Source of the DNA: an uncultured Actinomycetes bacterium
GTDB lineage: Bacteria > Actinomycetota > Thermoleophilia > Gaiellales > Gaiellaceae
Assembly (NCBI GenBank): GCA_963700495.1
Contig: CAVOXT010000002.1
Coordinates: 72,075-136,074, forward strand
Reading direction: 5' to 3'
Length of the DNA: 64,000 nt
A model generated the notes under the pieces. It had not been told where the DNA came from and made no database searches. It saw nothing but the letters and a program-made list of their open reading frames with translations. Below are positions 25,629 through 53,477 of the stretch, piece by piece. A program made the translations under genes and the position numbers. Every line of letters starts with the position of its first letter. The stretch's first letter is position 1.

Positions 25629-25633
25629 AGCCG

Positions 25634-31401: not shown

Positions 31402-31531
31402 AGACTTGTAACACGGAGCCCGCGTAGGAGAGACTAGGAACAAGCCTCTCCGACGCCACAGGGGGACGCTAATCGCCGCAGACGGTCTTGAGGATGCGAG
31501 GCTGGAACAGGCCATCGCGTATCTGTCCAGC

Positions 31532-32203: not shown

Positions 32204-33892
32204 GTGAAGGCGTTCTCGCACCCTCCCCAGGTGCCCGCCCAGCCCGAGGCGGTACTGCCGGCCGTGATGCTGTCGCGCTACCTCTTCTTTCTCACGCAGC
32301 GGCCGATCAGCCGAAGCAACACGCACTACGTCCGGCAGCGCATCCACGGCATGCAGTCGCTCGGCCGGCTGTTGGAGGAAGCCGACCACGAGCTCATGTC
32401 GGCGAGCCTTCGCCTCCTGCAGACGCTCGATCCCGGCAACCTGCACGAGACTTCCGAGCGCCTCCAGCTGACCCTCTTCCCCTTCGCACGAGCGGACATC
32501 CCGGCCACGTACATCAGCGCCGACGCGCCGCCGCCTCCCGAGTTCCTTCGTTCGTGCGAGCGCATCCTCCTGGTGCTGGGACCGGCGATCGGGATCGGGG
32601 ACGAGATCGTCACGTTCCCACTCCCCCAGTGGATCAAGCGGGCGAATCCGGCTGCTCACCTGACGACCCTCACCGCATACGAGGGCCTCTGGGACGGAGT
32701 GGCCGCCGTCGACCGTGTCGCCACCTACCGCGACTTCGCCGCCGTCGTCGGTGCGATGCGAGGCGACGACGACATCGGCAAGGCCGACCTCGTGCTCCTC
32801 GTCGACTTCGAGAACCCGGAGCTCTATCGGGCGGTCACCGCGGAGAAGGAGATCGCGAAGTACGCAGAGCTGTCGCTCGGCGCCCGCGTCCTCGCAGCGG
32901 TCGACAACGTCGAGGGCTGGACGTACCACCAGACGCTGCCTGTTGCCTACTTCAGGAACGTCTACGACGGCTTCGACGAGTTGGCCCGCTGCCTCGGCGT
33001 CACTCCGGACCCGGCCGATCGGCTCGACCCGAGCTCCAGCAGCGGCGACGGGAGCGGTGAGCTGCGCGTGTTCGTGTCACCGTTCTCGTCGAAGTACGAC
33101 CCGTCGCCGCGTTACTGGAGCACGCTCTTGTCGACGCTGATCCCGGACGGCGCAGGACGGGCGGTGCAGTTCGTCCTCGACCCCGGGCCGAACTCGACCA
33201 CGCATCGGTTCGCGACCGAGGTCGCCCGCGCAGCGGCGGCCCGCGGCAGGCAGGCCGCGGTCTCGTATGCCGTTGCGGGCGCCGACGGAGGGCGGCTTCC
33301 CCTGTCAGGCGTCTTCGAGGAGCTGAAGCGCGCGGACGTCGTGGTGTGCGCGGATTCGTTCGCGGCGCACGCGGCCCCGCGCATGGCGTGCACGACGCTC
33401 GTGGTCGCGAGCCCCGGTCTCGAGAACTGGAGGGTCCCGAGCGACCGCAGCTACTACTTCGACGCCGAGACGCCGATCGGCGAGCTCGTAGCCGGCATGC
33501 GCCAGATCCTCGAGCTGCACGGCATCGGGCAGACGGTCACGGCTCGACCGTCGGTCGGTGACGCCGAGGAACGTCTCGCCCACGCCGACGCCGAGCTCGA
33601 ACGCGCCGTGGCGGCGAACGCGAGCCTCGTGGAACTCTGCGCAGCGTACGAGCGGTTCCGCGCAGCGAGGGACGAGGTGGTCAACCGGCTCGAGGCCTGG
33701 CCTCCGTCCGCCGCAACGCTCACCGGCGACTACGCGTACGAGATTCCCGCACGGGACCTGAACGGGGACCACACCTTCCCCGCGGGGCTCGAGCCGGATA
33801 CGCGGATCTTCGTGAAGAACCACTGGCTGACGTGGCGGAACACGAATCTCCGCAAGTACCTGGACTCCCGCCTGGAGGAGACCCGCGCATGA
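32204..33892 (+). CDS. glycosyltransferase family 9 (heptosyltransferase)-like protein with long extensions
   Basis: 'RILLVLGPAIGIGDEIVTFPL' and 'ADVVVCADSFAAHAA' resemble the two GT9 core motifs. 562 aa. Confidence 0.6.
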   Translation: MKAFSHPPQVPAQPEAVLPAVMLSRYLFFLTQRPISRSNTHYVRQRIHGMQSLGRLLEEADHELMSASLRLLQTLDPGNLHETSERLQLTLFPFARADIPATYISADAPPPPEFLRSCERILLVLGPAIGIGDEIVTFPLPQWIKRANPAAHLTTLTAYEGLWDGVAAVDRVATYRDFAAVVGAMRGDDDIGKADLVLLVDFENPELYRAVTAEKEIAKYAELSLGARVLAAVDNVEGWTYHQTLPVAYFRNVYDGFDELARCLGVTPDPADRLDPSSSSGDGSGELRVFVSPFSSKYDPSPRYWSTLLSTLIPDGAGRAVQFVLDPGPNSTTHRFATEVARAAAARGRQAAVSYAVAGADGGRLPLSGVFEELKRADVVVCADSFAAHAAPRMACTTLVVASPGLENWRVPSDRSYYFDAETPIGELVAGMRQILELHGIGQTVTARPSVGDAEERLAHADAELERAVAANASLVELCAAYERFRAARDEVVNRLEAWPPSAATLTGDYAYEIPARDLNGDHTFPAGLEPDTRIFVKNHWLTWRNTNLRKYLDSRLEETRA

Positions 33893-34950
33893 TCGCCGCC
33901 GCAGATGTCTCGGTGGAGAGCGCCCGCGCGGTGTTCGCACGTCGGCTCGCGCGAGGACTCGACAGCGTCAGCAGGGGCCAGCACCCGAGCGGCGAGATGC
34001 TGTCGTTCCGCCGCGACCGGGAGGGCAACTACACGTACATCCGAAGCCCGTTCCTGTCGACGTTCGTGCACGACGCGCTCGCCTGCTTCGATCCGACCTC
34101 GCCCGGCTGGCTCGACGGCAGTCTCGAGCTGCTTCCCGAGCGCTCACAGGCGCGTTTCGTGCGGACCGTCGTGGAGCTGCGGCAGCGGATTCGCAGCTTC
34201 CTGATCTGGCAGCAGGAGGCGACCGGCTACTGGCGGTTCTTCGGACGGGGGAGCGGCATCGACCCGGACGTGAACTCGACCGCGTGCGCCTCGGTGGCGT
34301 TGCTCGAAGGGCACGGCGTCCGGAGCCTGACGCGGTGGGAGCTCCAGCAGTCGCTGATCCTCTCGTTCCGCTCGGCGGACGGCCCGTTCTTCACGTTCCT
34401 GAAGCCGCGGCAAGGCGGATACGGGTGGCTGAGCGACGAGGGCGTTCCGGTCGTCGGCTTCGACCGCGTGGTCAACGCGGAGGTGCTTCGCTACCTCGCC
34501 CGAGTGGGCCGTGGCGCGACGCCCGAGGCGAGCAGCCTCGCCGACTGGCTGCTCGGCGAGACAACCGGGACGGACGCCCTGACCGGCTCGCCGCTCTACC
34601 CCAATCCGGTCTCCTTCGTGTACGTCCTCGGCAGGGCTCTCGAAGAGTCAGACGTGCCCGCCCTGAACGAGGCACTGCTGCGGCTGGTGCTACGGCTGCA
34701 GCAGGCCGACGGCGGCTTCGGCGGCCCGCTGAGCACTGCGATGGGCGCGACGACGATGCTCACCCTCGGCCACCGCGGCTCCGAGCTGGACTCGGCCCGG
34801 CTGGCGGTGCTGCGGGCGCGTGGCTCCGGCGACTCGTGGACGTACGAAGACTTCGTCGTCCACGGCTTCGGCGCTCCGGCGTGGACGACGGCGCTCTCGA
34901 TGGCATTCCTTGCTCGCCACCACTGCGCGACAGGCGAGGCTCCGGCATGA
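33889..34950 (+). CDS. prenyltransferase/terpene-cyclase-like alpha/alpha-toroid protein
   Basis: The ATG at 33889 overlaps the upstream stop (ATGA). QW-like repeats are present: 'WQQEATGYWRFFG', 'RSADGPFF' and 'LQQADGGFGG'. Confidence 0.6.
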   Translation: MIAAADVSVESARAVFARRLARGLDSVSRGQHPSGEMLSFRRDREGNYTYIRSPFLSTFVHDALACFDPTSPGWLDGSLELLPERSQARFVRTVVELRQRIRSFLIWQQEATGYWRFFGRGSGIDPDVNSTACASVALLEGHGVRSLTRWELQQSLILSFRSADGPFFTFLKPRQGGYGWLSDEGVPVVGFDRVVNAEVLRYLARVGRGATPEASSLADWLLGETTGTDALTGSPLYPNPVSFVYVLGRALEESDVPALNEALLRLVLRLQQADGGFGGPLSTAMGATTMLTLGHRGSELDSARLAVLRARGSGDSWTYEDFVVHGFGAPAWTTALSMAFLARHHCATGEAPA

Positions 34951-36875: not shown

Positions 36876-36876
36876 C

Positions 36877-37943
36877 GTGCGGGTCCTCGTGCTCACGGCC
36901 GACTACGCGCCGGGCGCCTGGTCCGGGATCGGGACCGCGGTGGCCGTGCAGGCTGCGGCGGTCGCCCGGCGGGGTTTGGACGTCGACGTGATGGTCCCGG
37001 AGGACCGCATCGCGCGAGGTGCGGCGCAGACCGCGCGGCTGCGAGTGCGTCCGTTGAACCGCTCACGCTTTCCGTGCAGGCCGGACGACTTCGACGTCGT
37101 CCACCTCCACTCGCTCGGGTTCACCGAGCTGGCGCTGCAGATCCGGAGCAGGTTCGGCATCCCGCTCGTCTACACCGCGCACGCGTCGCTCCGCGACGAG
37201 CTTCCCAGGCAGACCCTCCGGGTGGACGCGGGTGCAGGACCTCGTGATCGCTCGGAGCGACCACGTCGTGTTCCCGAGCGCGGCCGAGCGGGCTGCGGCG
37301 ACGCACCGTACGCCCGGCCTGGCGAAGCGGAGCAGCGTGCACCCGAACGGCGTCCCTCCCGCCGTCGTGCACTGCGACGCCTCCGCAAGAACCGGGCCGA
37401 TCGTGTTCGCCGGACGGTTTGCGGAGACGAAGGGCCTGGCGCTGCTGAGCGAGATCGTCGACTCGCTCGACGGCCACCCGGCGATCCGCTTCGTGCTCGC
37501 CGGTGGGCACGCGGAGCCTGCAGGCCGCCGCATGGTCGCCGATCTCGTCGCCCGCCATCCCGAACGGTGCCGGACCGTCGGTTGGCTCGCGCCGGCCGCG
37601 CTGCAGCGGCTGTTCGCGAGGGCGAGCATGGTGCTGGTGCCGAGCCGGTACGAGCCGTTCGGACTGGTGGCGCTCGAGGCGATGCGGGCGGGGGCGCCCG
37701 TCCTCGCCGCTGCGACCGGAGGGCTCCGCGAGGTCGTCGGCCCGGGATCGGGCGGCCTCCTCGTCCGCTCCCGACGCCCCGAAGACTGGTGCGCGGCCAT
37801 CCTCGAGCTCTGGAGATCACCGGGGCTGCGGACCTCGCTGGCACGACGCGGCCCAAGCTACGTCGCAGAGCGCTACGACCCGGACACCCTGGCGGGTGCG
37901 CTGGTCGACGAGGTGTACCGGCCGCTCGCCGCGGGAGGTGTGA
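36877..37943 (+). pseudogene. GT4-family (GT-B) glycosyltransferase (frame break near 37205)
   Basis: The N-terminal half lies in ORF 36028..38493 (VRVLVLTADYAPGAWSGIG..VHLHS). The C-terminal half lies in ORF 37232..38050 (FAGRFAETKG, 'PSRYEPFGLVALEAMRAGAPV'). Confidence 0.75.
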
Positions 37944-38721
37944 GCGTGACGCCTTCGCGACCAGGTCGTTGCGATCACGGGGGCGTTCACGCGGCATCGG
38001 CAAGGCGATCGCGCTCCGACTTGCGCGCGAAGAGCCGCGGCACGTCGTGATCGGCTACGTGTCGAACAACAACGCGGCACGGGCAACGGTCGACGAGCTG
38101 TCGGAGCTCGGCGTCCCGGCGACGACCGTCCGCGTGGACGTCGCGCAGGAGCAGATGCTGCGCGAGATGTTCGACCGCATCCGCAACGAACTCGGCCGAT
38201 TCGACGTGTTCGTCAGCAACGCGGCGCGGACGACGTTCCGCCCCGCGATGGAGCTCAACGTCACGCAACTGGCAGAAGATCATGGACATCAACGCCCGCG
38301 CGTTCCTGCTCGGGTCGCAGCTGGCGGCCGAGCTCATGCGCGAGGGAGGCGGCGGCCGGATCATCGCGATCAGCAGCCTCGGATCACGCTTCGCCGTGCC
38401 CGACTACTCGGGTCTCGGCGCCGCCAAGGCGGTCATCGAGACGCTCGCGCAGGTACCTCGCGGTCGAGCTGGCGCCGTGGGGCATCAACGTGAACGTCGT
38501 CTGCGGCGGCTTCGTCGACACGCCAGCATGCGCCTCGCCGCCGACTATCGCGAGCTCACCGAGCATCTCGTCGCGAAGACGCCTGCCGGCCGGCTCGCGA
38601 CAGCCCGACGACCTCGCCGGGATCGTGGCGTTTCTCTGCTCACCCGACTCGGACTGGATCCGGGGCCAGACGCTGGTCGCCGACGGCGGCTACTCCGTCG
38701 GCCCTCTCACGCCGGACATGA
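37940..38721 (+). pseudogene. SDR-family oxidoreductase (enoyl/ketoacyl reductase-like; at least 4 frame breaks)
   Basis: Pieces are 'VVAITGAFT' + 'GIGKAIALRLA', 'VFVSNAA', 'IIAISSLGS..YSGLGAAKAV' and 'GINVNVVCGGFVDT..LVADGGYS', spread over three frames. Confidence 0.65.
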
Positions 38722-39481
38722 CGATGACGCTCTCGAGATTCGACGGTCGCGTCGGCGCTGGTCACCGGCGGCTCGCGTGGGATCGGCCGCGCGATCGCCG
38801 TCCAGCTCGCACGCGAGGGCGCCGGCGTGGTCGTCGACTACGTGCGCGCCGAGGAGCGAGGCCGAAGCGGTCGTCGAGGAGATCACCTCGTCGGGCGGAG
38901 ACGCCCACGCTGTTCCAGGCGGACGTCGCGACGAGGCCGAGGTGAAGGAGCTCGTGCGCTTCGCGGTCCGACGCTCGGCGGCATCGACGTGCTCGTCGCC
39001 AACGCAGGAACGGTGCAGGATCAGCTCGTGGGGATGATGACGCGTGAAACAGTGGGACACCGTGCTCGACGTCAACCTGCGCGGAGCGTTTCTCTGCATT
39101 CGCGAGGTCCTGCCGTTCCTGATGCGACAAGAAGTCGAGCTCGGTCGTGTGCCTCTCGTCTGTCGCCGCCGTACAAGGCGGGACGGGGCCACGCCAACTA
39201 CGTCGCCGCAAAGGGCGGGCTGAACTCGATGGTGAAGTCGCTGGCCGTGGAGCTGGCGCCGAAGGGCGTCCGGGTGAACGCCGTCTCGCCCGGTGTTATC
39301 GCCACGCACATGTCGGAACGGGTGCCGACGGCTGGCGGGCGACGAGATCCTGGACGGAATACCGCTGCAACGCTACGGCGAGCCGGACGACGTCGCGCAG
39401 GCCGTGTGCTTCCTCGCCTCCGACGACGCGAGCTACGTCACCGGAGAGATTCTTCAAGTCACGGGAGGGTTCGGACTATGA
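38718..39481 (+). pseudogene. fabG: 3-oxoacyl-ACP reductase (about 9 frame breaks in 760 nt)
   Basis: Pieces are 'MTMTLSRFDGRV', 'ALVTGGSRGIGRAIA', 'IDVLVANAG', 'SSVAAVQGGTG', '[17 protein letters not shown]' and '[17 protein letters not shown]'. They alternate between all three frames. Confidence 0.75.
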
Positions 39482-40060
39482 ACAGCACGTCGCAGGCCGA
39501 CGTGGGCCGCCTCGGACGAGGTCGCCCTGAAGGTCCGAACGCTGACCGCAGAGAACCTCGAGCTCGACCTGGAGGACGTGCAGATGGAGTCGTCGTTCTT
39601 CGAGCTCGGTGCCGAGTCGCTCGACCTGCTCGACGTTGCCTTTGCGCTCGAGAGCGAGTACCGGATCTCGTTCCCCCGCACCGACATCCTCGAGCGGGCG
39701 ACCGAGCACTTCGGCGAGGAGGCGCTGGTCAAGGACGGACTCGTCACCGACCTGGGGCTGCAACTCCTGCGCGAGGGAATGCCCGAGTTGGACCCGGACC
39801 TGATCAAGCCCGGGCTGCGCGACACGGATGTCGCCCAGAAGATCACCGTCGGAAGCTTCGCGCGGATCACACAGCGACTGATCGACGCGAAAGCCGACTT
39901 CTCTCGGACTGCCCCGAGTGCGGGAGCCGCCTCGTCGAGTCGGAGATCATGCCCGAGTTCGAGTGCCCCGGCTGCGGCAAGATCGTTCCCGTTCCGAGCG
40001 GCGACGAGTGCTCTGCAGGATCTCATCGACCTGCACCAGCAGACCGTGGGGGCTCAGTGA
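39478..40060 (+). pseudogene. acyl-carrier-protein-like protein with internal insertion and C-terminal zinc ribbon (3 frame breaks)
   Basis: The ATG overlaps the fabG stop (ATGA). 'FFELGAESLDLLDVAFALESEY' (the Ser attachment motif) lies in ORF 39578..40060. 'CPECGSRLVESEIMPEFECPGCGKIVPVPSGDE' lies in the frame of ORF 38827..40506. The end 'ALQDLIDLHQQTVGAQ' returns to the first frame. Confidence 0.6.
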
Positions 40061-40506
40061 GGTTCCTGCTCGTCGACTCGATCTTGGAGCTCGAGACCGG
40101 TGCACGCGCCGTCGGGGTCAAGAACATCTCGATGAGCGAGGACTTCCTGGCCGACCACTTTCCCGACCGGCCGATCATGCCGGGCATGCTCATCCTCGAG
40201 TCGCTCGTCCAGCTCGCGGACTGGGTCGTTCGCGATGCGAGCAACTTCGACAAGATCGGCGTGGCCGCGGGTTTCGACCGGATCAAGTTCCGCCGCGTCG
40301 CGCGCCCCGGCGACCAGCTCCGGCTGGAGGTCGGCTTGAGCTCGTCGGATGACGGAACGCACGAGTTCCGAGGCAAGGCGTACAGCGGTGACGAGCTTGC
40401 CGCCTCGGCGAACATCACCATGATCGAGGCTCCGCTCGAGGACTATCTCGACGCCGATGCGGCGCGTGCTTCCCTTGCGATCCTGCGGCGGGACGGCGTC
40501 CCGTGA
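40057..40506 (+). CDS. FabZ/FabA-like hotdog 3-hydroxyacyl-ACP dehydratase
   Basis: The GTG at 40057 overlaps the upstream stop (GTGA). 'EDFLADHFPDRPIMPGMLILESLVQ' carries the catalytic His motif. Confidence 0.8.
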   Translation: MRFLLVDSILELETGARAVGVKNISMSEDFLADHFPDRPIMPGMLILESLVQLADWVVRDASNFDKIGVAAGFDRIKFRRVARPGDQLRLEVGLSSSDDGTHEFRGKAYSGDELAASANITMIEAPLEDYLDADAARASLAILRRDGVP

Positions 40507-41805
40507 GCACGGCCCCCCGCCGTGTCGTCATCACCGGCATGGGCGCTCTCACCTCGCTCGGTACCGACGTGGAGTCGAGTTGGGAGGCAGTGCTGGCGGG
40601 CCGGTCGGGCGTGCGCCAGATCAAGCAGTTCGAGAGCGACGAGTTCCCGGTGAACATCGGCGAGCGAGGTCGACGTCGACGAGCTGGAGGTCGACGGGTT
40701 CGACGAGTCGCTGCGGCCGTTCGTCACGCGCTCGGTGAAGCTGGGCGCGTGGGCCATGACCGAGGCGTGGGAGCAGGCGGGGCTCGAAGGGGGCAGCTAC
40801 GACCCCTGGCGGACGGGGCTCATCGTCGGCGCCTCCAACTTCCCCGTCATCGAGGAGTCCGAGTACAGCTGGCCGACCGAGGCACTCAACGTCGAGCGCT
40901 ACAAGGACCAGTACCTGGCCATCTGCGAGGACATGCCCCAGCTGCTGGCCCAGCGCGAGATCGGGATGGTCTCCGCCCTGCTTGCCGCCCCGTACCCGAT
41001 CAAAGGGCCGTGCATGACGGTGCAGTCCGCCTGCGCGTCGGCGACCCAGGCGATCGGCGAGGCCCTCCAGATGATCCGGCACGGCCAGGCGGACCTGATG
41101 GTGGCCGGAGGCGCGGACAGCATGCTCTCGGCCGTCTGCGTGACCGGCTTCACGCTGTTGACGGTCGCTTCGACCTATCGCGGCGACCCGGGCAAGGCCT
41201 GCCGGCCGTTCGACCGCAAGCGTGACGGCCTCGTCCTGGGCGAAGGTGCGGGGATCGTCATCCTCGAGAGCCTGGAAGCCGCACAGGACCGCGGCGCACC
41301 GATCCTCGCCGAGGTCGTCGGCTACGGCTCGTCGGCGGACGGGTACCGCTTCACGGACAGCCATCCGGAAGCGCGCGGCGCAGTGCAGTGCATGCGCGCG
41401 GCGCTCGCCGACGCCGACCTCCAGCCGGAAGACATCGACTACATCAACGCTCACGGGACCGGCACGCCGCAGAACGACCGCACCGAGACGTTCGCGATCA
41501 AGCAGGTGTTCCGGGACCACGCCTACGCGATTCCCGTGAGCTCCACGAAGTCCCAGCTCGGACATCTGCTGTGCGCCTCGGGCGGAGTCGAGCTCGTGAT
41601 CACGGTCGAGGCTCTGCGAAAGGGAATCGTCCCCCCGACGATCAACCTCGAGAACCCCGACCCGGACTGCGATCTCGACTACGTGCCGCACACGCCTCGC
41701 GAAGCGGACCTCGAGCTCGGGCTCTCGAACTCGTTCGGGTTTGGCGGCCAGAACGGCACGCTCATCGTCCGCCGCTCGGACGCCGCCACGGGAGCGGCCG
41801 GGTAA
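40503..41805 (+). pseudogene. beta-ketoacyl-ACP synthase (FabF/KS-alpha type; one frame break near 40665)
   Basis: 'RVVITGMGALTSLG' lies in ORF 40503..41225. The rest lies in ORF 40735..41805: the active-site Cys 'TVQSACASATQAIG', 'INAHGTGTPQND' and 'KSQLGHLLCASG'. Confidence 0.9.
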
Positions 41806-42269
41806 TGCGCTTCCTGCTCTTCGATCGCATCACCGAGGCCGAGCGCGGAAAGCGGATCCAGGGCGTCAAGCTGGTGAGCCTCACGGACGGCGCGCTCGCC
41901 GACCACTACCCGCGCCGAGCGGTGCTGCCGCCGACGTTGGTCGTCGAGGCCATGGCGCAGCTCGGTGGAATGCTCCACGTCCTCAACCACGACTTCTCGG
42001 TCGAGATGCTGTTGGTGCTCGTCGACCGCGTGAAGCTGGCTCGCCCGGTGCTTCACGGCGAGACGATCACGATCGAGGTCTGGTCGGAGTACGACCACCC
42101 GTACGGCGCGACCATGAACGGCGAGGCACGAGTCGACGGAGACGTGGTTGCGACCGCCGGCCGCATCGTCTACGCGCACGAGATCATCACCGACCCGAAG
42201 CGGATCCAGAAGGCACGGGATCGCTTCGCCTACCAGGGCGGCTCGCCCGCCGAGGTGTGGGTCGCGTGA
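41805..42269 (+). CDS. second hotdog-fold dehydratase-like protein
   Basis: The ATG at 41805 (TAATG overlap) lies inside ORF 41388..42269. The sequence 'MRFLLFDRITE..ALADHYPRRAVLPPTLVVEAMAQ' parallels the first dehydratase. Confidence 0.7.
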   Translation: MRFLLFDRITEAERGKRIQGVKLVSLTDGALADHYPRRAVLPPTLVVEAMAQLGGMLHVLNHDFSVEMLLVLVDRVKLARPVLHGETITIEVWSEYDHPYGATMNGEARVDGDVVATAGRIVYAHEIITDPKRIQKARDRFAYQGGSPAEVWVA

Positions 42270-43543
42270 GCGTCGCGGTCGTGACGGGAGTGGGTGTCGT
42301 GTCGCCGCTGGCGACGAGCGCGGCCGAGCATTTCGATGCCTGGATCGAGGGACGGTCCGCCGTCGCGGAGTCCGCCGAGCCCGAGTTCGAGAAGTACGCG
42401 CCCCAGCTCGAGGCCCGGGTCACCGGCTTCGACCGGAAAGAGGCGATCTCCAGCCGCATGCTCAGGAAGCTGCTGGCGCCGAGCGCGGGCTTCGCGGTCG
42501 GCGCCGCCGGAGAGGCGATCGCCGACGCCGGGCTCTCCGGCGAGCCCGAGGTGCTCGCGGACTGCGGGCTCTACATCGGATCGCTCTCGCTGGAGATCGA
42601 CCCCGACGTCTTCATCGCACCGCTGCGGGCGTCGCTCACGAGGGAGGGCGAGTTCGACCTGTCGCTGTTCGCCCAGCGGGGGATGAAGCTGCTCGATCCG
42701 CTGTTCCTCGTCCGCGCGCTGCCGAACGCCGGCCTCTGCGGAGTGTCTCTCGAGCATCAGGTGCTCGGACCGAACACGAACCTCACGAACGGCCCGACCT
42801 CGGGACTCGCGGCCGTCGCGCTGGCGGTGGCAGCGGTCGAGCGCGGCGAGATCCGCTGCGCGATCGCCGGCGGCTACGACTCGCTGCTCGTGATGGACGC
42901 CCTCGCCGAGCATCTGATCGCCGGACGCCTGGCCCGGAACGGCGGTGCGCCCGAACGGGCATGCCGCCCCTTCGACCGCACCCGCGAGGGATACGCGCTC
43001 GGGGAAGGCGCCGCCTTCGTCGTCGTGGAGTCGGTCGAACACGCCCGGGAGCGCGGGGCGAACTCCTACGGCCGAATCCTCGGCTACTCGAGCACCACCG
43101 ACCCGGGTCTCCTCGGCCCTTCGAGCCCCTTGGACGGCACTGCGCTCGAGCAGGCTGCCCGCCTGGCCCTCGAACGCGCGGGGACGGCCCCCGCGGAGCT
43201 CGGCGCCATCTTCGGCGACGGTCTTGCAACCGAGCTGGACGACATCCGGGAGAGCGACGCCGTCGGCCGCGTGCTCGACGGGGCCAAGGTGCCCTTCACC
43301 GCGCCGACGAGCGCGATCGGCTACACCGGCGCCGCCAGCGGGGTGTTCTCGCTGCTCCATGCCCTGGTCGCGGTCCGCCGAGGAGTGGCCCCGCCGCTCG
43401 CGAACTGCGACGAGCTCGACCCTCGCTGCCCGGTCCACCACCACTCCACTCCTGCGCCGCTCTCTCCGGAGACGGTCCTCGTGTGGAACAGCGAGCGCGG
43501 CGTCAAGAACGTCGCGATGGTCGCCGGCCCCGACGCCCCCTGA
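42266..43543 (+). CDS. KS-like partner lacking the catalytic triad (chain-length-factor-like)
   Basis: The GTG at 42266 (GTGA overlap) lies inside ORF 41741..43543. It has a thiolase fold, but 'NLTNGPTSGLAA' replaces the A-C-A-S-G Cys site and 'FGDGLATELDD' replaces 'HGTGT'. Confidence 0.8.
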   Translation: MSVAVVTGVGVVSPLATSAAEHFDAWIEGRSAVAESAEPEFEKYAPQLEARVTGFDRKEAISSRMLRKLLAPSAGFAVGAAGEAIADAGLSGEPEVLADCGLYIGSLSLEIDPDVFIAPLRASLTREGEFDLSLFAQRGMKLLDPLFLVRALPNAGLCGVSLEHQVLGPNTNLTNGPTSGLAAVALAVAAVERGEIRCAIAGGYDSLLVMDALAEHLIAGRLARNGGAPERACRPFDRTREGYALGEGAAFVVVESVEHARERGANSYGRILGYSSTTDPGLLGPSSPLDGTALEQAARLALERAGTAPAELGAIFGDGLATELDDIRESDAVGRVLDGAKVPFTAPTSAIGYTGAASGVFSLLHALVAVRRGVAPPLANCDELDPRCPVHHHSTPAPLSPETVLVWNSERGVKNVAMVAGPDAP

Positions 43544-43553
43544 GAGCCGGAAG

Positions 43554-44393
43554 GTGTACGTCCTCGCCGCTCTGCTCATCCCGGTCGCGGTGGCAACCGC
43601 GCTCCTCACGAGGCTGTTCCTGCGCCAGGACCGCCTGATCTTCCGGCCCGGACCGGTGCTCGACCGCAGCCCGGCGAGCATCGGGATCCCCCACGAAGAG
43701 CTGCGGCTGGCGGCCGACGACGGAACGAGCGTGACCGCCTGGTGGGTCGCCGGAGCCGCGGAGGCACCGGTCGTCCTCTACTTCCACGGCAGCGAGGGCA
43801 ACCTCACCCACGAGCTGCCGGTCGTGCACTTCCTCAACTCGCTCGGTGTCAACGCGCTGCTCGTCGAGTACGTCGGCTACGGCTCGGACGAGTTGCGGCC
43901 GAACGAAGCCGGCTGCTACCGGACCGCCGACGCGGCCTGGAGGTACCTGACGCAGGATCGGGGTTTCGCCGAGGACCAGGTGATCCTGTTCGGGCACTCG
44001 CTCGGGGCCGCCGTGGCGGCACGCAGCGCCGCAGGGCGTGGCTGCGCAGGGCTCGTTCTTCAGAGCGGCTTCACCTCGGTGAAGGATCTCGCTGCGCGCG
44101 CCTACCCGTACCTGCCGGTCCGGCCGTTCCTGCGGACCCGCATGGACGTGCTCGAGCCGGTCCGGCGCAGCCGGTGCGCGGTGCTCGTCATCCACTCGCG
44201 AGACGACGAGCACATTCCCTACGAGCAGGGCCGGCGCCTGTTCGACGAAGCCCGCGCGACGAAGAAGCTCGTCACGCTCCGGGGGTCGCACTTCGGCCTG
44301 ACCTGGCACCGCTCACCCGAGATCAGGGCCGCGTGGCGCGAGCTGCTCGCACGGGACTTCAGCACCTGGGCGGCGCAGGCAGAGAGCAGCTGA
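43554..44393 (+). CDS. alpha/beta hydrolase (ABHD/BEM46-like) with N-terminal TM helix
   Basis: The GTG at 43554 follows a GGAAGG Shine-Dalgarno sequence. Motifs are 'VVLYFHGSEGN', 'LFGHSLGAAVA' and 'VIHSRDDEHIP'. Confidence 0.8.
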   Translation: MYVLAALLIPVAVATALLTRLFLRQDRLIFRPGPVLDRSPASIGIPHEELRLAADDGTSVTAWWVAGAAEAPVVLYFHGSEGNLTHELPVVHFLNSLGVNALLVEYVGYGSDELRPNEAGCYRTADAAWRYLTQDRGFAEDQVILFGHSLGAAVAARSAAGRGCAGLVLQSGFTSVKDLAARAYPYLPVRPFLRTRMDVLEPVRRSRCAVLVIHSRDDEHIPYEQGRRLFDEARATKKLVTLRGSHFGLTWHRSPEIRAAWRELLARDFSTWAAQAESS

Positions 44394-45016
44394 TGCGGGA
44401 CGAGGTCCGCCGGATCGCGCTCGGGACCAAGGGCTTCCTCACCGAGCCCGAGGGATTGCGCCTGTACGAGCTGGCACGCAGCAGCTCGGGCGACGGACCG
44501 TGTCTCGAGATCGGCTCCTACTGCGGCAAGTCGGGACTGTTCCTCGGGGAAGGGTGCCGGGAGACCGGCCGGCATCCGCTGTTCACCGTTGACCACCACC
44601 GCGGCTCCGAGGAGCACCAGCCGGGAGAGGCGTACCACGACGCCGAGCTCTACGACGACGGCGAGCAGGCGATGACGACGCTGCCTGAGCTGGTCCGGAA
44701 CATCCGGACGGCCGGGTTGGAGAGCTGGGTTATCCCGCTCGTCGCCGAGTCGGAGATCCTCGGCCGGTATTGGCCCGAGCACAGTCTCAGCCTCCTGTTC
44801 CTCGACGGCGGGCATTCGGAGTCGGACGCCTTCGGCGACTACCGGACCTGGCACCGCTGTCTCCGGCCGGGCGGGTACCTGTGCATCCACGACGTCTTCC
44901 CCGACGCGACCGACGGCGGTCAGGCTCCGTACGGCGTCCTCTGCGAGGCGAGGTCGGACGACTCCTGGCAGTACGAGGGGATGGTCGAGACCCTCGCCGT
45001 CCTGAAGCGGCTGTGA
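44393..45016 (+). CDS. class I SAM-dependent (O-)methyltransferase
   Basis: The ATG at 44393 (TGATG overlap) lies inside ORF 43742..45016. Motifs are 'CLEIGSYCGKS', 'LLFLDGGHS' and 'LRPGGYLCIHDV'. Confidence 0.75.
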   Translation: MRDEVRRIALGTKGFLTEPEGLRLYELARSSSGDGPCLEIGSYCGKSGLFLGEGCRETGRHPLFTVDHHRGSEEHQPGEAYHDAELYDDGEQAMTTLPELVRNIRTAGLESWVIPLVAESEILGRYWPEHSLSLLFLDGGHSESDAFGDYRTWHRCLRPGGYLCIHDVFPDATDGGQAPYGVLCEARSDDSWQYEGMVETLAVLKRL

Positions 45017-46065
45017 GCACTGCGATCCGCTCCTCGCGCCACCTTGGAAAGTTCCCGCGTGCTCGAACGGACACGTGGGTGATGGTCGGCCAGGACGGCG
45101 GCCAGTCGATCGACCTCGGCGATCAGGCCCTCGTCGTCTTCTCCGACACGCTGCTGCTGCCGACCGACGCTTCCGACCAGGTGTCCGACCGGCACAAGAC
45201 CGCGCCCCCCTATGCGGACGACGTCGCGGAGCGCGGCGTGTTCCTGGCGAACTGCGCCGCGCTCGTCGACGGGGCCGATCTGCGTGAGGGCCTCCGCCGC
45301 CTCAGGTTCTTCACGGACGACGACGAGTTCCCCGTCGAGATCCTCGCGCCGACCGAGGACGAGACAGCGGCCGGCCTGCGCTTCTGGCCGGCTCACGGCG
45401 TGGCGTCCGGCGGCGGGGTCTACCTCTACTACCTCGGCATCGAGACGCTCACGCCGCGCGACGTGTGGGACTTCCGCAACGTCGGCGTGGGACTGGCCCG
45501 ACTCGACCCGGAAACGGGCCGCTGCGAACGGATCCGTGTCGACGGCGACTGGTGCCTGTGGCGGCCGCGGTCCGACGACTTTCACTTCGGCGTACAGGCG
45601 GTCCGGCACGACGGTCAGGCGTACGTCTTCGGGAGCACGCGCCACGGGCTGGACGTCTCGGCGCTGCTCGGCCGTGTGCCGCTCGAGGAGATCGCCGACC
45701 CGGGTGCGTACGAGTTCTACGACCCGGGACGCGACGCGTGGCTCGCCGACTCCGGTCTGGCCGGAAGTCTCGGCCCGTGCGGCAGTGACTTCTCAGTCTC
45801 GTTCAACGCGTACCTCGGCCGGTGGCTGATGGTGTACGTCGACGCGTTCAGCAAGCAGCTCGCGCTCAGGCTCGCCGATCGGATCGAGGGGCCCTACTCC
45901 GAGCCGGAGATCGTCGGGCGGTTGCCTCATGCACCCGCGAGCGACCTGGTCTATCTCGGGTTCGAGCATCCGAAGTTCGCGCGCGACGACGGCCGCCGCG
46001 TTCTGGTCTCCTACTGCGAGCCCCGCTTCGAGATGTGCTCGCTCCTCGAGGTCTCGTTCCAATGA
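45013..46065 (+). CDS. DUF4185-like protein (beta-propeller glycoside-hydrolase-like)
   Basis: The GTG at 45013 overlaps the upstream stop (GTGA). 'GQSIDLGDQALVVFSDTLL', 'FWPAHGV' and 'VYLYYLG' resemble DUF4185 as I recall it. Confidence 0.5.
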   Translation: MSTAIRSSRHLGKFPRARTDTWVMVGQDGGQSIDLGDQALVVFSDTLLLPTDASDQVSDRHKTAPPYADDVAERGVFLANCAALVDGADLREGLRRLRFFTDDDEFPVEILAPTEDETAAGLRFWPAHGVASGGGVYLYYLGIETLTPRDVWDFRNVGVGLARLDPETGRCERIRVDGDWCLWRPRSDDFHFGVQAVRHDGQAYVFGSTRHGLDVSALLGRVPLEEIADPGAYEFYDPGRDAWLADSGLAGSLGPCGSDFSVSFNAYLGRWLMVYVDAFSKQLALRLADRIEGPYSEPEIVGRLPHAPASDLVYLGFEHPKFARDDGRRVLVSYCEPRFEMCSLLEVSFQ

Positions 46066-48548
46066 GTGACGAGACGCTGCAGGGTCTCGCGCAGCGCCTG
46101 CCGGCCTTCGGCGACCGGCGCGCGCTCGGGCTGCGCGGCTCGTACGGCAGTCGTTGGTGGACCTATCGTCGGGTGCACGCCGAGGCCTTTCGCTTCGCCG
46201 GCCTCCTCGAGGACCGCGGGGTTCAGGCAGGCGACCGCGTCGCGATCTGGGGCGCCAACGGGCCGGAGTGGGCCGCCGCTGCATTCGGCGCGATGCTCAG
46301 AGGCGCGGTCGTCGTTCCGATCGACGAAGGCACCTCGGCGTCGCATGCCTCGCAGCTCGTCGAGCTCGCCGGACCGCGGCTCGTCTTGCACGACCCGAAC
46401 GTCGACGTCGGCGCGCTCGGCGTTCCGGGTCTGTCCCTCTTCACCGCCGCCGAGCACGCCGGCGAACGCAACGTCGTCGTGCCGGTCGGGCCGGAGGACC
46501 CGGCGTTCCTCCTCTTCACCTCGGGGTCGACGCGCGAGCCGCGCGGCGTGGTGCTGACGCACCGAAACCTCGTCAGCCAGGCCGCCGCTTTCCGACGTTG
46601 GCGATGGCTGACGCGGATGCACGCCTATCGCTTGCTGGCGCTCTCGCCCCTCAGCCACGTGCAGGGCCTCGTGATGGGACTGGTGGTGCCGGCCTCGCTC
46701 GGGCTGAGCGTCCTGTATTCCGAGTCCGTCGAGCCGGCGCACGTGATCCGGACGATCCGTCAGAACCGGATCAACATCCTGCTCGCCGTCCCAAGGGTGC
46801 AGGGAATGCTGGCCGACGCACTGCGCGCGTCCCCGTACGGCGACGGCCGCCGGACCCTCGGCGAGCGAGCGTCGGAGATCCGCGCGTTCGTGCTGCGGCG
46901 CCACGTGCTGTTCCTTGCGACGCGTCGACAGCTCGGCTACTCGTTCGGCGTCCTGCTCGTCGGTGGTGCGACGCTCGCGCCGGACGACGAGCGCTTCTGG
47001 TACGAGTGCGGCTACGTGCTGGCTCAGGGGTACGGCCTCACGGAGACGAGCGCACTCGTTTCGGTCCACGTGAACGGTCCCTTCGGGGCGCGCCTCGGGT
47101 CGGTCGGACGAGCGCTCCCGCACCAGGACGTCCGGATCGGCGCCGACGGCGAAGTCCTCGTGCGCGGTCCGAATGTGACGGGCGGTGACGGCTACCTGCA
47201 CACCGGCGACCTGGGCCGCCTCGATGCGCGCGGACGACTGTGGCTGCGGGGCAGGAAGGACGACGTGATCGTCACCGGCGAGGGCCTCAACGTCCACGCC
47301 GACGACGTCGAAGCGAGCCTCCGTGCCGTCGCGGGTGTCCGCGACGCGGTCGTCGCCGATCTCGACGACGGCGGTCAGGTTCACGCCGTGCTGTTGCTCG
47401 ACGACGGCAGCGCGCCCGGCGAGGTCGTGGCGTCGGCCAATGCGACGCTCGAGCCGTATCAGCGCGTGCACAGCTGGAGCGTCTGGCACGAAGGCGACTT
47501 CCCGCGCACGAGCCTGCTCAAGGTGCGCCGCGCCGAGGTGATCGGCGCAGCCCGCGCCGGCAACGGCGGCACGGCGAGGCCGGACGCCGCCCCCGACCTC
47601 GGGACGATTCGCGCCGAGGGCGACCGCCGCCGCCGGTTGCAGCTGCTGGCCCGCTACCTCACGGATCCCGACAGTGGGAGCGACCCCGACGCGCAGATCG
47701 AGGACTTCGGGCTGAGCTCGCTCGACGCGGTCGAGCTGCTTGCGATGATCGAGGTGATCGAAGCGAGGCCGATGCCGCAGCTCTCGATCACACCGGCAAC
47801 AACCGTCGCCGAGCTCCGCCGTTCGGTCTCGGGTCCGTCCCCAAAGCGCGTGCTGCCGACGCGCCAGCCTAGGTGGTCCGCCGCGTTGCCCGGGCGGTTG
47901 ATGCGACTCGCGACCCGGCCGCTGCTCGTCGGGAGCTGGGCACACCTCGCGGCGGGAGTCTCGGTCGTGCACGACCGCCCCCCGCGCGGGCAGTGCGTCC
48001 TCGCCGTCGCCCCGCACCGTCACTGGCTCGACGCGTTCGCGGTGCAAGCCGCCCTGCCCGCAGGGACGCGCACCATCACGGTCACGAACCGCGACTTCGC
48101 CGAGCACTTCGCACCGACCGACGACGTGCCGCGCCGCGCGCGGTTTGCGGTCGGCTTCGCGTACCACCTTCTCTGGCCGATGGTCTTCCAGTTCGCGATC
48201 GTGCCGAACTACGGAAGCACGCGAGAGGGGCTCCAGGAGCTCGGCACAGCGATCGACCGCGGGCTCAGTCCGATCTCGTTCCCGAAGGGACTCGCGCCAC
48301 CGGGACAGCCCAACCCGCGTCACGAGCCCGGGATCGCCGAGCTCGCGACGCAGACCCAGCTGCCGGTGGTTCCCGTCTGGATCGACGGCAACGACGAGCT
48401 CGGCGTGCTGCCCCGCCGCAGAAGGCCCCGGGTGACGGTCCGGTTCGGCGAGCTCATACCCGTCGGTCCGCAGACCGAGCCGAACGAGGTGGTCGAGCGC
48501 GTCGAGGCCGCCTACGAGCTGCTTGCACGTGCGGGGGGCATGCGATGA
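46062..48548 (+). CDS. tri-domain fusion: acyl-AMP/CoA ligase - phosphopantetheine carrier - PlsC-type acyltransferase
   Basis: The ATG at 46062 overlaps the upstream stop (ATGA). Adenylation motifs are 'LLFTSGSTREPRGV', 'QGYGLTETS', 'YLHTGDLG' and 'GRKDDVIV'. The carrier motif is 'DFGLSSLDAVEL', and the acyltransferase H-x4-D motif is 'APHRHWLDAF'. The 828 codons are uninterrupted. Confidence 0.85.
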   Translation: MSDETLQGLAQRLPAFGDRRALGLRGSYGSRWWTYRRVHAEAFRFAGLLEDRGVQAGDRVAIWGANGPEWAAAAFGAMLRGAVVVPIDEGTSASHASQLVELAGPRLVLHDPNVDVGALGVPGLSLFTAAEHAGERNVVVPVGPEDPAFLLFTSGSTREPRGVVLTHRNLVSQAAAFRRWRWLTRMHAYRLLALSPLSHVQGLVMGLVVPASLGLSVLYSESVEPAHVIRTIRQNRINILLAVPRVQGMLADALRASPYGDGRRTLGERASEIRAFVLRRHVLFLATRRQLGYSFGVLLVGGATLAPDDERFWYECGYVLAQGYGLTETSALVSVHVNGPFGARLGSVGRALPHQDVRIGADGEVLVRGPNVTGGDGYLHTGDLGRLDARGRLWLRGRKDDVIVTGEGLNVHADDVEASLRAVAGVRDAVVADLDDGGQVHAVLLLDDGSAPGEVVASANATLEPYQRVHSWSVWHEGDFPRTSLLKVRRAEVIGAARAGNGGTARPDAAPDLGTIRAEGDRRRRLQLLARYLTDPDSGSDPDAQIEDFGLSSLDAVELLAMIEVIEARPMPQLSITPATTVAELRRSVSGPSPKRVLPTRQPRWSAALPGRLMRLATRPLLVGSWAHLAAGVSVVHDRPPRGQCVLAVAPHRHWLDAFAVQAALPAGTRTITVTNRDFAEHFAPTDDVPRRARFAVGFAYHLLWPMVFQFAIVPNYGSTREGLQELGTAIDRGLSPISFPKGLAPPGQPNPRHEPGIAELATQTQLPVVPVWIDGNDELGVLPRRRRPRVTVRFGELIPVGPQTEPNEVVERVEAAYELLARAGGMR

Positions 48549-49816
48549 GGGTCACCATCCTCACGGCCGGGTCGCGCGGCGACATCCAACCGTACGTGGC
48601 GCTCGGCGCCGGCCTGCGCCACGCCGGCTTCACCGTGCGGCTGGCGACCCACGTCGGCTTCCGGGATCTCGTCGAGTCGCAGGGCCTGGAGTTCGCCAAG
48701 GTCGCGCATCCCTCGGACGTGCTGACCACGGACCCGCGTTGGGAGGCGCTTCAGAACGCCGGCGACACCGCCGGACGGTTCGTGCGCCGCTCCGCGCGGG
48801 TCGTGCGGATGATTCAGCCGCTGCTCACGGGAATGCTCGACGACTACTGGGCGGCGTGCCAGGGAGCAGACGCGGTCATGAGCTCCGTCGCCGGAATCGG
48901 CGGGCCTCAGCAGGCCGCCGCTCTCCACGTTCCACACTGCTGGGCGCTCGTCCAGCCGATGAGTCCGACCGCCGAGTACCCGCACTTCATGGCCCCCGCC
49001 CCGCGCCGCCTGCCGCGACGGCTCAACTTCCGCACCCACGTCATCGCCGAGCGGGTTCACTGGCGTCTGTTCCGCGCCGCCGTCAACCGTTGGCTGGCCG
49101 CCAACCTCGGCGCGGGTTCGGTTCCCAAGCCCGCGCCGGGCGGCCTCTTCGGATCCGGTGCCGGCTCGATCGTGTACGGGATCAGCCCCTCGGTGGTTCC
49201 GCGGCCGAGCGACTGGCCGCCGAACATCGCGCAGTTCGGTCACTGGTTCCTCGACTCGGCGCCCGACGCGACCCTTCCGGCCGAGCTCGAAGACTTCCTC
49301 GATGCGGGCGCTCCGCCCGTCCTCGTCCATGCGGACCGGATCGGCGTGACCCCGCGCGAGGACTTCGTCGCGATGGCTGTCCGCGTGCTTCAGCGCCTCC
49401 GTTTGCGCGGACTCGTCTCCGGACCGGAGGCGGGAGCGCTGCCCGACTCGGCTCTGTACATCCCACCGGTTCCTTTCGACCGGCTCTTCCCGCTGGTTGC
49501 CGGCGTCGTGCACCACGGCGGCGTCGGGACGACCGCGACGTCGTTGCGAGCGGGGATCCCGAGCTTCGGTGTGCCCGGGTTCTTCGACCAGCAGTTCTGG
49601 ACCTCACGCGTTGCGGCGCTCGGCGCGGGACCTCGCCCCGTGGCGGCGCGACGAATGACGGAAGCGCGGTTCGAAGCGGCGATCGCGCAGCTCGTCGGCG
49701 ACGCCTCGATCCGAACGCGGGCCGCCGAGCTGGGACGCCGGATCAGGTGCGAGCGCGGAGTCGACGAGGCCGTCGTCCACCTGCGGGCCGTCCTCGCTGG
49801 AGCGAGCGATGCCTAG
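48545..49816 (+). CDS. GT1-family (MGT/UGT/sterol-glucosyltransferase-like) glycosyltransferase
   Basis: The ATG at 48545 overlaps the upstream stop (ATGA). The sequence begins 'MRVTILTAGSRGDIQPYVALG' and later carries 'VVHHGGVGTTATSLRAGIPSFGVPGFFDQQFW'. Confidence 0.8.
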   Translation: MRVTILTAGSRGDIQPYVALGAGLRHAGFTVRLATHVGFRDLVESQGLEFAKVAHPSDVLTTDPRWEALQNAGDTAGRFVRRSARVVRMIQPLLTGMLDDYWAACQGADAVMSSVAGIGGPQQAAALHVPHCWALVQPMSPTAEYPHFMAPAPRRLPRRLNFRTHVIAERVHWRLFRAAVNRWLAANLGAGSVPKPAPGGLFGSGAGSIVYGISPSVVPRPSDWPPNIAQFGHWFLDSAPDATLPAELEDFLDAGAPPVLVHADRIGVTPREDFVAMAVRVLQRLRLRGLVSGPEAGALPDSALYIPPVPFDRLFPLVAGVVHHGGVGTTATSLRAGIPSFGVPGFFDQQFWTSRVAALGAGPRPVAARRMTEARFEAAIAQLVGDASIRTRAAELGRRIRCERGVDEAVVHLRAVLAGASDA

Positions 49817-50159
49817 CGTCTACGGGCTGCACCGCGTGCGCCTCCGCCCCGGCGTCGACCCGGAGGAGTTCGAGCGGTTCACGCTCGCGGAGTTCCTGCC
49901 GGCGCTTCAGGCGCTGCACGCTCCGGGTGTGCAGTTCGCGCTCCTGAAAGCAGAGCGCGGCGCGGACGCGGGCGAGTATCAGTTCATGATGGTCTTCGAC
50001 AGCGTCGAGACCCGCGATCGGTACTTCCCGGAGGAAGTTCGCGCGTCGGACGAGCTGATCGAGCTGATCCAGCCGCTCGCACCGCTCGCCGAGGTCTGGG
50101 AGGGGCTGTCGGCCCGCGAGAAGACGGACTGGCTGAGGCTCGGGGACGGCCCGTCGTGA
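49809..50159 (+). CDS. hypothetical small protein (alpha+beta barrel-like?)
   Basis: 116 aa with protein-like composition. It has an 8-nt overlap upstream and a GTGA overlap downstream. Confidence 0.5.
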   Translation: MPSVYGLHRVRLRPGVDPEEFERFTLAEFLPALQALHAPGVQFALLKAERGADAGEYQFMMVFDSVETRDRYFPEEVRASDELIELIQPLAPLAEVWEGLSAREKTDWLRLGDGPS

Positions 50160-52045: not shown

Positions 52046-52052
52046 GGCAGCG

Positions 52053-53475: not shown

Positions 53476-53477
53476 GG

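Follow-up and report, generated by a model that had tools for sequence, protein, structure and literature searches.

A FabF-like ketosynthase and its catalytically dead paralogue in a conserved, putative secondary-lipid gene cluster of an uncultured Gaiellaceae bacterium

The chain-building genes of the locus

The stretch of DNA analysed here, referred to below as the window, comprises 64,000 nucleotides from an uncultured bacterium of the family Gaiellaceae (Actinomycetota; assembly GCA_963700495.1, contig CAVOXT010000002.1, positions 72,075 to 136,074), and our concern is a row of seven genes on its forward strand in which a FabF-like ketosynthase (KS) is accompanied by a full-length paralogue predicted to be catalytically dead, two reductases of the short-chain dehydrogenase/reductase (SDR) type, two dehydratases (DHs) and a carrier protein. 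The genes are listed as read against an intact, syntenic and 80%-identical cluster on an ENA metagenome contig (L001, which served as reference locus and was extended as L032). The L001 proteins were aligned to the window by a frameshift-aware protein-to-DNA method, which mapped the frameshifts, and identities in the list are to L001.

37953..38720, + strand: FabL-type enoyl-ACP reductase (ER), SDR1, with Y-x6-K (YSGLGAAK at 38405-38428) and at least five frameshifts; aligned over 37953-38699 with 5 frameshifts, 85% identity after repair
38718..39481, + strand: FabG-type 3-oxoacyl-ACP reductase (ketoreductase, KR), SDR2, with Y-x3-K and nine single-base frameshifts; aligned over 38736-39478 with 9 frameshifts, 83% identity after repair
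39478..40060, + strand: carrier of ~195 aa with an acyl carrier protein (ACP) domain, a helical extension and a zinc ribbon; three frameshifts, two of them in the aligned part (39503-40057) and one just after the ATG; 84% after repair
40057..40506, + strand: FabZ-like dehydratase DH1, intact, with catalytic His (DHFP, 40153-40164) and Glu; aligned over 40057-40497 with 0 frameshifts, 78% identity
40503..41805, + strand: FabF-like KS, Cys/His/Lys/His intact, gene split by an extra base at 40662; aligned over 40518-41799 with that 1 frameshift, 81% after repair
41805..42269, + strand: intact FabZ-like dehydratase DH2, encoded between KS and partner, its Glu and its His (DHYP, 41901-41912) both present; aligned over 41805-42242 with 0 frameshifts, 82% identity
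42266..43543, + strand: KS-like partner, a full-length (425 aa) catalytically dead KS paralogue and chain-length-factor (CLF) analogue; intact open reading frame (ORF); aligned over 42266-43528 with 0 frameshifts, 80% identity

Pfam recognised a PP-binding domain in 39524-40057, FabA-like matches in 40057-40503 (DH1) and 41805-42266 (DH2), and ketoacyl-synt N and C domains in 40654-41802 (KS); both ketoacyl-synt domains were matched again, at lower strength, in 42266-43540 (KS-like). The order carrier, DH, KS, DH, KS-like given by the original prediction, which had set the module at 38718-43543, is confirmed by these matches, but the fabG-like, carrier and KS genes are not the unbroken genes that it described, as they hold nine, three and one frameshifts, respectively. 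Likewise, its carrier protein does have a PP-binding domain but is not a small ACP, being ~195 aa long with a zinc-ribbon tail, and its limits were drawn one gene short at the 5' end, where the FabL-like ER belongs to the module too. All five of the overlapping junctions that it had listed are real (ATGA at 39478; GTGA at 40057, 40503 and 42266; TAATG at 41803-41807), and the chain-building genes are translationally coupled.

A FabF-like ketosynthase and its dead partner

The active-site motifs of the KS stand intact where they had been read (SACASA 41026-41043, HGTGT 41452-41466, GHLLCASG 41560-41583). In the KS-like protein the corresponding Cys and HGTGT sites had been read as NGPTSG (42788-42805) and DGLATE (43217-43234), and the alignment with FabF agrees, Cys being replaced by Pro, the first His by Asp, Lys by Thr and the second His by Tyr. 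The comparison was extended to 25 KS/partner pairs, namely the window, L001 and 23 loci with full-length matches. While the KS retains Cys/His/Lys/His in all 25, the partner shows Pro (9), Ala (7), Thr (4), Ser (3) or Tyr (2) in the Cys column and never Cys or Gln (0/25 for each); the first His has become Asp (23), Cys or Ala, the Lys is Thr, Ala, Gly or Val, and the second His is Phe or Tyr. Because 25/25 orthologues across phyla have lost the catalytic residues, the dead partner is a family trait and not a local sequence error, which was one of the checks proposed with the prediction.

The partner always co-occurs with the KS. Neighbour-joining trees separate the cluster KSs, as a single clade, from a second clade made up of the partners. 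The partner clade is set apart from FabF, and the first refuting condition named with the prediction, a grouping with functional FabF enzymes, thus does not apply. The topologies of the two subtrees match, and the KS and partner distance matrices correlate with r = 0.92. The partner evolves faster, with a mean identity of 47.6% versus 59.9% for the KS. It is about equally distant from FabF, KS-alpha, CLF and NodE (24-31% identity) and shares 13.6% with ApeC; marginally, it is most like CLF (29-31%), beside which it fell in the first tree. This CLF-adjacent placement was lost when further references were added, among which a Streptomyces plasmid cluster (L033) stood in for Iga11/Iga12 of the highly reducing type. 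As the position next to aromatic CLF is unstable with more references, we treat the KS-like clade as a putative independent lineage. The AlphaFold2 model of the partner adopts a complete two-lobe KS fold (pLDDT 84.8), equally close in Foldseek to FabF, act KS/CLF and Iga11 (TM 0.85-0.88), so that structure does not discriminate between them. A protein search with the KS-like sequence recovered more than 100 clusters of close relatives at 46-100% identity, mainly metagenomic. An exact look-up of this protein and of its 100%-identical database entry led to no contig, and the 80%-identical L001 took their place in the comparisons.

The catalytic subunit resembles fatty-acid synthases (FASs). Against the FabF equivalog model TIGR03150 the KS scores 441 bits, under the cut-off of 494, and it passes the subfamily model NF005589, 'beta-ketoacyl-ACP synthase II' (436 bits versus a cut-off of 387). 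Its closest solved relative in the PDB is Thermus FabF (E = 7e-91), followed by act KS (4e-65) and AntD (6e-58). By identity it ranks E. coli FabF first (40.6%), then NodE (39.8%), ApeR (35.8%), aromatic KS-alpha (35.5%) and ApeO (28.1%). On these sequence comparisons the KS is FAS-like, nearer FabF than any polyketide synthase (PKS) KS tested. Moreover, it shares 50-73% identity with cluster KSs of other phyla, and because these values well exceed those to Bacillus FabF (43.5%) and mycobacterial KasB (41.5%), the cluster KSs are a distinct orthologous group common to several phyla.

Reductases, dehydratases and carrier

The Tyr-x6-Lys spacing is typical of FabI and FabL enoyl reductases, and Tyr-x3-Lys of KRs. 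It is on account of this established spacing that SDR1 is typed as an enoyl reductase: Y-x6-K is found in 22/22 SDR1 orthologues, that is in every locus keeping the reductase genes, and Y-x3-K in 22/22 SDR2 orthologues. For intact SDR1 orthologues the best NCBIfam family is FabL (NF005975, 277 bits, below the equivalog cut-off of 328), the next family scoring 195. SDR2, judged on the intact L001 orthologue, reaches 270 bits with TIGR01830 (FabG), failing the FabG equivalog and passing a FabG subfamily model.

FabZ is the best NCBIfam family for both dehydratases (110 bits for DH1), and the catalytic His and Glu are kept in 16/16 orthologues of each. The DH1 of L001 has a precomputed Pfam match to ApeI-like; BLASTP of the DHs gave no match to E. 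coli ApeI or ApeP. KS, ER, DH1 and DH2 all score below their best equivalog cut-offs. Taken together, KS, KR, DH and ER make up what, from family assignments and motifs, is a full reducing cycle.

In the carrier the modified Ser lies in GAESLD (39608-39625) and the zinc-ribbon motifs are CPECG (39910-39924) and CPGCG (39964-39978). The Ser is present in 24/24 aligned orthologues and the C-terminal CxxC...CxxC in 23/24; we found no description of this architecture of ACP, helical extension and zinc ribbon.

The surrounding gene cluster

Synteny by tblastn, together with Pfam and NCBIfam scans, places the module inside a co-directional conserved block of roughly 23 kb (~31415-54908), whose other genes are as follows.

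31415..32194, + strand: DUF4440/NTF2-like protein (weak Pfam DUF4440), 5' edge of the cluster, start codon uncertain
32204..33880, + strand: 559-aa conserved protein without Pfam or NCBIfam family, GT9-like by eye only, syntenic in most loci
33919..34947, + strand: ~345-aa conserved protein without family, QxxDGGFGG-like repeats by eye, 70% to L001
35018..36856, + strand: ~638-aa methyltransferase (MT) protein in which an all-alpha domain at the N-terminus is joined to a Cys4 zinc ribbon and an S-adenosylmethionine-dependent MT domain of class I; frameshifted
36877..37933, + strand: GT4-family glycosyltransferase (GT), one frameshift near 37207
43554..44393, + strand: alpha/beta hydrolase with hydrophobic N-terminus (Pfam Hydrolase_4, Abhydrolase_6), syntenic
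44393..45016, + strand: Methyltransf_24 (O-methyltransferase-type) enzyme by Pfam, syntenic
45070..46065, + strand: DUF4185 protein by Pfam, GH183 endo-D-arabinanase family
46062..48548, + strand: tri-domain ~820-aa protein with AMP-binding, ACP (PP-binding) and LPLAT-type acyltransferase domains, syntenic in most loci
48545..49816, + strand: GT1-family (GT28 N-terminal / EryCIII-like) glycosyltransferase
49809..50159, + strand: small conserved protein of ~110 aa without family
50156..52045, + strand: NodU/CmcH-type carbamoyltransferase (Pfam Carbam_trans_N and C; best NCBIfam match NodU)
52046..53476, + strand: second copy of the 476-aa protein, degenerate or frameshifted
53478..54908, + strand: 476-aa conserved protein without family, GT-B-like by eye, 3' edge of the cluster

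Most of the cluster proteins have no curated NCBIfam model. The DUF4440-like gene accompanies the cluster in L019, L020 and L022-24, and occupies the equivalent position in L032. The alpha/beta hydrolase is a candidate thioesterase or acyl-releasing enzyme. At the C-terminus of the tri-domain protein a weak match to PF01553 (Acyltransferase) coincides with an HRHWLD sequence that fits the HX4D motif. The DUF4185 family has been characterised as endo-D-arabinanases (PMC10115798). With respect to the two copies of the 476-aa protein, the C-terminal ~90 aa of the upstream one (53161-53436) are clearly homologous to ~54600-54870 of the downstream one, which gives the appearance of a tandem duplicate.

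The ~638-aa protein, recovered by tblastn in pieces from three frames, has a Pfam Methyltransf_23 match, and the top Foldseek hits of the MT domain in its AlphaFold2 model are MtmC, KijD1 and TcaB9, which are NDP-sugar C3-methyltransferases. In its N-terminal domain (~350 aa), which never occurs apart from the zinc-ribbon and MT domains, the motifs RxFDDxxDxH and NDxxDxxxD are invariant and look like the metal-binding motifs of class I terpenoid synthases, a likeness by motif only. Pfam, NCBIfam and PDB sequences gave no match for this domain, a profile of it searched against PDB sequences returned only spurious apolipoprotein matches, and Foldseek on the whole protein was dominated by the MT domain and did not place it. 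Even at E <= 5, Pfam gave nothing for this domain, the 559-aa protein or the ~345-aa protein.

Distribution across bacteria

Among species-representative genomes, 25 loci with relatives of the KS-like protein came to light, the nearest in Actinomycetota (80% identity). Some lie in metagenome-assembled genomes (MAGs) labelled Firmicutes, and the others in Ardenticatenaceae, Promineifilaceae, Anaerolineae, Bryobacterales, Acidobacteriaceae (the isolate KBS 96 included), Granulicella, Terracidiphilus, Thermoanaerobaculia, Calditrichaceae, Gammaproteobacteria and Myxococcaceae. A cluster of ~17-20 genes recurs in at least 20 loci of Actinomycetota, Chloroflexota, Acidobacteriota, Calditrichota, Myxococcota, Gammaproteobacteria and Firmicutes-labelled MAGs, hence in at least seven phyla. 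We found no description of it in the literature searched.

Loci of the Acidobacteriaceae type hold the carrier, the KS and the partner, usually with both SDRs, and are devoid of DH1 and DH2. In these (L017, L018, L020, L022-L024) the carrier, KS and dead KS genes are directly adjacent and the hydrolase and MT24 genes are missing along with both dehydratases; in L017 and L018 only the carrier-KS-partner triad is left.

Proposed function and the polyene alternative

The reading that we favour, and hold to be reasonably probable, is that these genes build the acyl chain of a secondary lipid, most likely a glycolipid, within a conserved cluster, and that they are neither a housekeeping FAS nor a classical polyene system. 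It is tempting to propose the following scheme. The KS and its dead paralogue would form a heterodimer of the KS/CLF type, in which the dead subunit would shape the acyl tunnel and thereby set chain length. Malonyl units would be loaded onto the dedicated carrier by the FabD of the host, because the cluster has no acyltransferase for that step. Each beta-keto intermediate would then be processed by the KR, the DH1/DH2 pair and the ER, giving an acyl chain that is reduced fully or for the most part and has a set, probably unusual, length or unsaturation pattern. The membrane-anchored alpha/beta hydrolase and the fusion of AMP-ligase, ACP and acyltransferase might release this chain, re-activate it and transfer it to an acceptor, which would itself be glycosylated by the GT4, the GT1 and further GT-like proteins, methylated by the three methyltransferases and carbamoylated by the NodU-like enzyme. 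By analogy, such a mechanism would parallel those of the aryl-polyene (APE) clusters and of NodE/NodF/NodU.

Several points weigh against this scheme. We infer the heterodimer and the acceptor, and likewise the length of the chain and how far it is reduced; DH2 stands between the KS and its partner, unlike the canonical layout of adjacent KS and CLF genes; and the Acidobacteriaceae-type loci dispense with both DHs. Since SDR1 scores under the FabL equivalog cut-off, it could act on another substrate. No recognisable family accommodates the 559-aa, ~345-aa and 476-aa proteins or the N-terminal domain of the 638-aa protein, and with several proteins thus familyless, it is the recognisable GTs, the carbamoyltransferase and the LPLAT-like domain that speak for a glycolipid. 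Finally, a second type II FAS (FAS II) set in the genome lies outside what a 64-kb window can show.

The original prediction had called the system a polyene-forming, highly reducing type II PKS. A conjugated polyene would require the ER to be skipped, to act once or to act on another substrate, and we regard this reading as unlikely. Systems of the ishigamide and aryl-polyene type are marked by just such a combination, in which a KS and a dead partner go with a KR and two DHs and cyclases are absent (PMC8358021), and the highly reducing type II PKSs (ishigamide Iga11/Iga12; L033) share with the window FabZ-like DHs acting after each condensation. The likeness extends to gene order, since the ER-less plasmid cluster of Streptomyces sp. 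NBC_00727 (L033) has the same DH-KS-DH-KS' arrangement, and the ApeI-like Pfam match of the L001 DH1 points in the same direction. L033 itself (NZ_CP108982.1, 46710-56052) reads fabD-ACP-KR-DH-KS-DH-KS'-(787-aa double KS)-KSIII and has the appearance of a cluster of the highly reducing type II PKS-like kind, for which we found no name.

However, the case for a polyene rested on the absence of an ER, and a FabL-type ER lies directly upstream of the predicted module and belongs to its conserved core. A conserved ER adjoining the module weakens the polyene reading, and a full reducing cycle that includes an ER removes the main argument for it. The highly reducing clusters lack a FabL-type ER and share just 30-40% identity with the window proteins; the L033 partner has lost only its Cys and retains His/Lys/His, whereas the window partner has lost all four residues; and Iga11 is structurally no closer to the partner model than FabF is. 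With about 40% identity to FabF versus 28% to ApeO and 36% to KS-alpha, the KS lies nearer to FabF than to the PKS KSs tested, and the partner differs from ApeC in both length and sequence. Neither the DHs, nor the AMP-ligase fusion, nor the partner shows BLASTP similarity (E <= 1e-3) to E. coli ApeI, ApeP, ApeH, ApeD or ApeC. What holds good of the prediction is its broader part, namely a dedicated, non-housekeeping KS with a dead partner, a KR, two competent FabZ-like DHs and a carrier, and no aromatase or cyclase gene, for which Pfam gave no match among the ORFs scanned over 28504-56329. Its alternative wording, an 'unusual fatty-acyl chain factory', fits better than 'polyene'. The prediction was right about a dedicated KS/dead-KS chain factory and probably wrong about the polyene type.

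Frameshifts and sequence quality

With a G+C content of ~70% in the window, raw ORF lists are uninformative. A frame plot of G+C at third codon positions (GC3) reveals a coding frame that switches every 100-300 nt from ~36000 to 40650 and is steady within each of 40660-41800, 41800-42260 and 42280-43480. The fabG-like frame from 38718 contains three stop codons and becomes readable only through its nine single-base frameshifts, and the N-terminus (40503-40661) and remainder (40666-41805) of the KS lie in different frames. Altogether, ~28 single-base indels relative to intact orthologues, mostly +1 and outside homopolymers, are packed into the 4.7 kb of 35960-40662, while the following 3.5 kb (40663-44215) contain none.

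One could therefore suppose that the frameshifts are real and that the cluster is a decaying pseudogene in this organism, and the clustering of indels, not expected of uniform sequencing error, speaks for this supposition. We nevertheless find it improbable. Once their frames are restored, the broken genes match L001 at 81-85% identity, not below the 78-82% of the unbroken ones, and every fragment has kept its GC3 coding signal; true pseudogenisation was rejected on the former ground, the identity of the repaired genes not being lowered. Because the repaired genes diverge no more than the unbroken ones, the frameshifts are, on present sequence comparisons, assembly or consensus errors and not decay, and the genes are to be read as intact. 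The uneven packing may, at a guess, stem from a locally poor consensus. Genes unrelated to the cluster are split too: that of the xanthine dehydrogenase Mo-binding subunit (8754-10506, - strand) and that of an amidohydrolase (14168-15236, + strand) each run over two frames, as probably does a CMAS gene (5059-6352, - strand), which is consistent with indel errors across the whole window. Comparable splits occur in L003 and L021, from other MAGs with MFD isolate names.

Relation to fatty-acid synthases and other paired systems

That the module is simply the housekeeping FAS II operon of the organism might be argued from its families, since the best matches of KS, KR, DHs and ER (FabF, FabG, FabZ and FabL-like) all belong to primary metabolism, a full beta-carbon processing set is shared and the KS passes the 'beta-ketoacyl-ACP synthase II' subfamily model. 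We give this reading very little credence. Neither fabD, fabH and accABCD nor a 77-80-aa AcpP was found among the window ORFs scanned, the carrier being instead the 195-aa zinc-ribbon fusion. The block is common to distant phyla, with KS identities well above those to Bacillus FabF and KasB. Housekeeping FAS II has no use for a dead KS paralogue, the module sits among GTs, MTs and a carbamoyltransferase, and the KS fails the FabF equivalog cut-off; the reading was rejected.

It is equally hard to see the window as a divergent member of the APE family, despite a parallel set in E. coli CFT073 (apeA-R, L027) of KS with dead partner, KR, DH pair, dedicated carrier (two carrier domains), adenylating enzyme, LPLAT, GT(s), MT and hydrolase: likeness does not go beyond superfamily level, the accessory proteins gave no BLASTP match to the E. 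coli Ape proteins (the ground on which membership was rejected), ApeC is a half-size CLF of 240 aa with one thiolase lobe (PMC8358021) against 425 aa and both lobes in the window partner, only the window cluster has an ER, and the ApeR-type second KS and the LolA, MMPL and DUF3261 export genes of APE clusters found no Pfam match among the scanned cluster ORFs.

The favoured reading, a module building chains for a secondary lipid, may also be set beside two systems that resemble it in part. In aromatic type II PKSs (actinorhodin, 1TQY; the S. chartreusis pair L029) a catalytic KS is likewise associated with a full-length Cys-less paralogue, and the two genes are co-inherited and translationally coupled. 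The window differs in the presence of a KR, two DHs and an ER, in the DH gene that separates the KS from its partner, in the lack of a cyclase or aromatase among the scanned ORFs, and in a KS nearer FabF than KS-alpha. The reference aromatic CLF has Gln at the Cys position, while none of the 25 cluster partners does, and these have lost Lys and both His as well. Gln at this position of a CLF is the mark of decarboxylative chain initiation. A partner without it should therefore not prime by decarboxylation.

The second is the NodE/NodF/NodU system of the rhizobial Nod factor (L030). There, too, a particular acyl chain is built by a specialised FabF-like KS (40-42% identical) that has a carrier to itself, and the glycolipid is methylated and carbamoylated by a NodU-type enzyme. 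The nod clusters lack a dead KS partner, and the window cluster lacks the NodA, NodB and NodC chitin-oligomer machinery.

In a catalogue of 2023, Charkoudian and co-workers reported a CLF clade, unexplored until then and for the most part non-actinobacterial (PMC10132072), whose low-scoring CLF-like proteins go with FAS-like KSs as 'FAS-FAS' pairs in phyla that include Acidobacteria and Chloroflexi; the listing is a bulk one, with no cluster description, active-site analysis or function. The dead-partner family plausibly falls inside this clade.

Significance of the cluster family

Type II polyketide synthases are defined by their KS/CLF pairs, and this family bears on the question of how such pairs are tied in evolution to fatty-acid synthases. 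It sits between FAS II and the highly reducing type II PKSs, since it has a FAS-like KS, a fully dead full-length partner and a retained enoyl reductase, and from it one could learn what a chain-length factor does when the chain is a reduced one and not aromatic or polyenic. What appears new, judging from the genes, is the occurrence of an unusual CLF analogue, a zinc-ribbon carrier and an ER of its own in a conserved multi-phylum secondary-lipid cluster.

A broader proposition, to which we would give an even chance, is that the window holds one member of an undescribed secondary-lipid cluster family of at least seven phyla, in which a new kind of KS/CLF core (FabF-like KS, partner stripped of four residues, zinc-ribbon carrier, DH pair, KR and ER) feeds a carbamoylated, methylated glycolipid, possibly a widespread envelope lipid of soil bacteria. 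The groups that conserve the block, Acidobacteriota, Chloroflexota, Actinomycetota and Myxococcota among them, are abundant in soil and poorly cultured, so that the glycolipid in question may be common among soil bacteria. The existence of cultured carriers, such as Acidobacteriaceae KBS 96 and the genus Granulicella, makes the question testable.

Other genes of the window

Outside the cluster, an adenylate/guanylate cyclase-AAA-TPR regulator of ~1076 aa is encoded at 760-3987 (- strand). It is followed at 4178-8550 by a lipid-modification block encoding DegV, a membrane fatty-acid desaturase and two fatty-acyl synthases of the CMAS type (cyclopropane or methyl-branch), which lies ~23 kb from the 5' edge of the cluster (~30 kb from the chain-building module) and is not syntenic in other loci. 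Purine catabolism occupies 8754-17063, with xanthine dehydrogenase subunits, adenine deaminase, amidohydrolase, OHCU decarboxylase and urate oxidase. On either side of the cluster there are genes for two polyprenyl synthases and two geranylgeranyl-reductase-like flavoproteins (24222-26656, 30333-31340 and, on the - strand, 55154-56329). The upstream pair of geranylgeranyl-reductase-like protein and polyprenyl synthase, together with IspH, is syntenic in L032 (780-4459) and not in other phyla, and a lineage-specific isoprenoid link to the cluster is possible.

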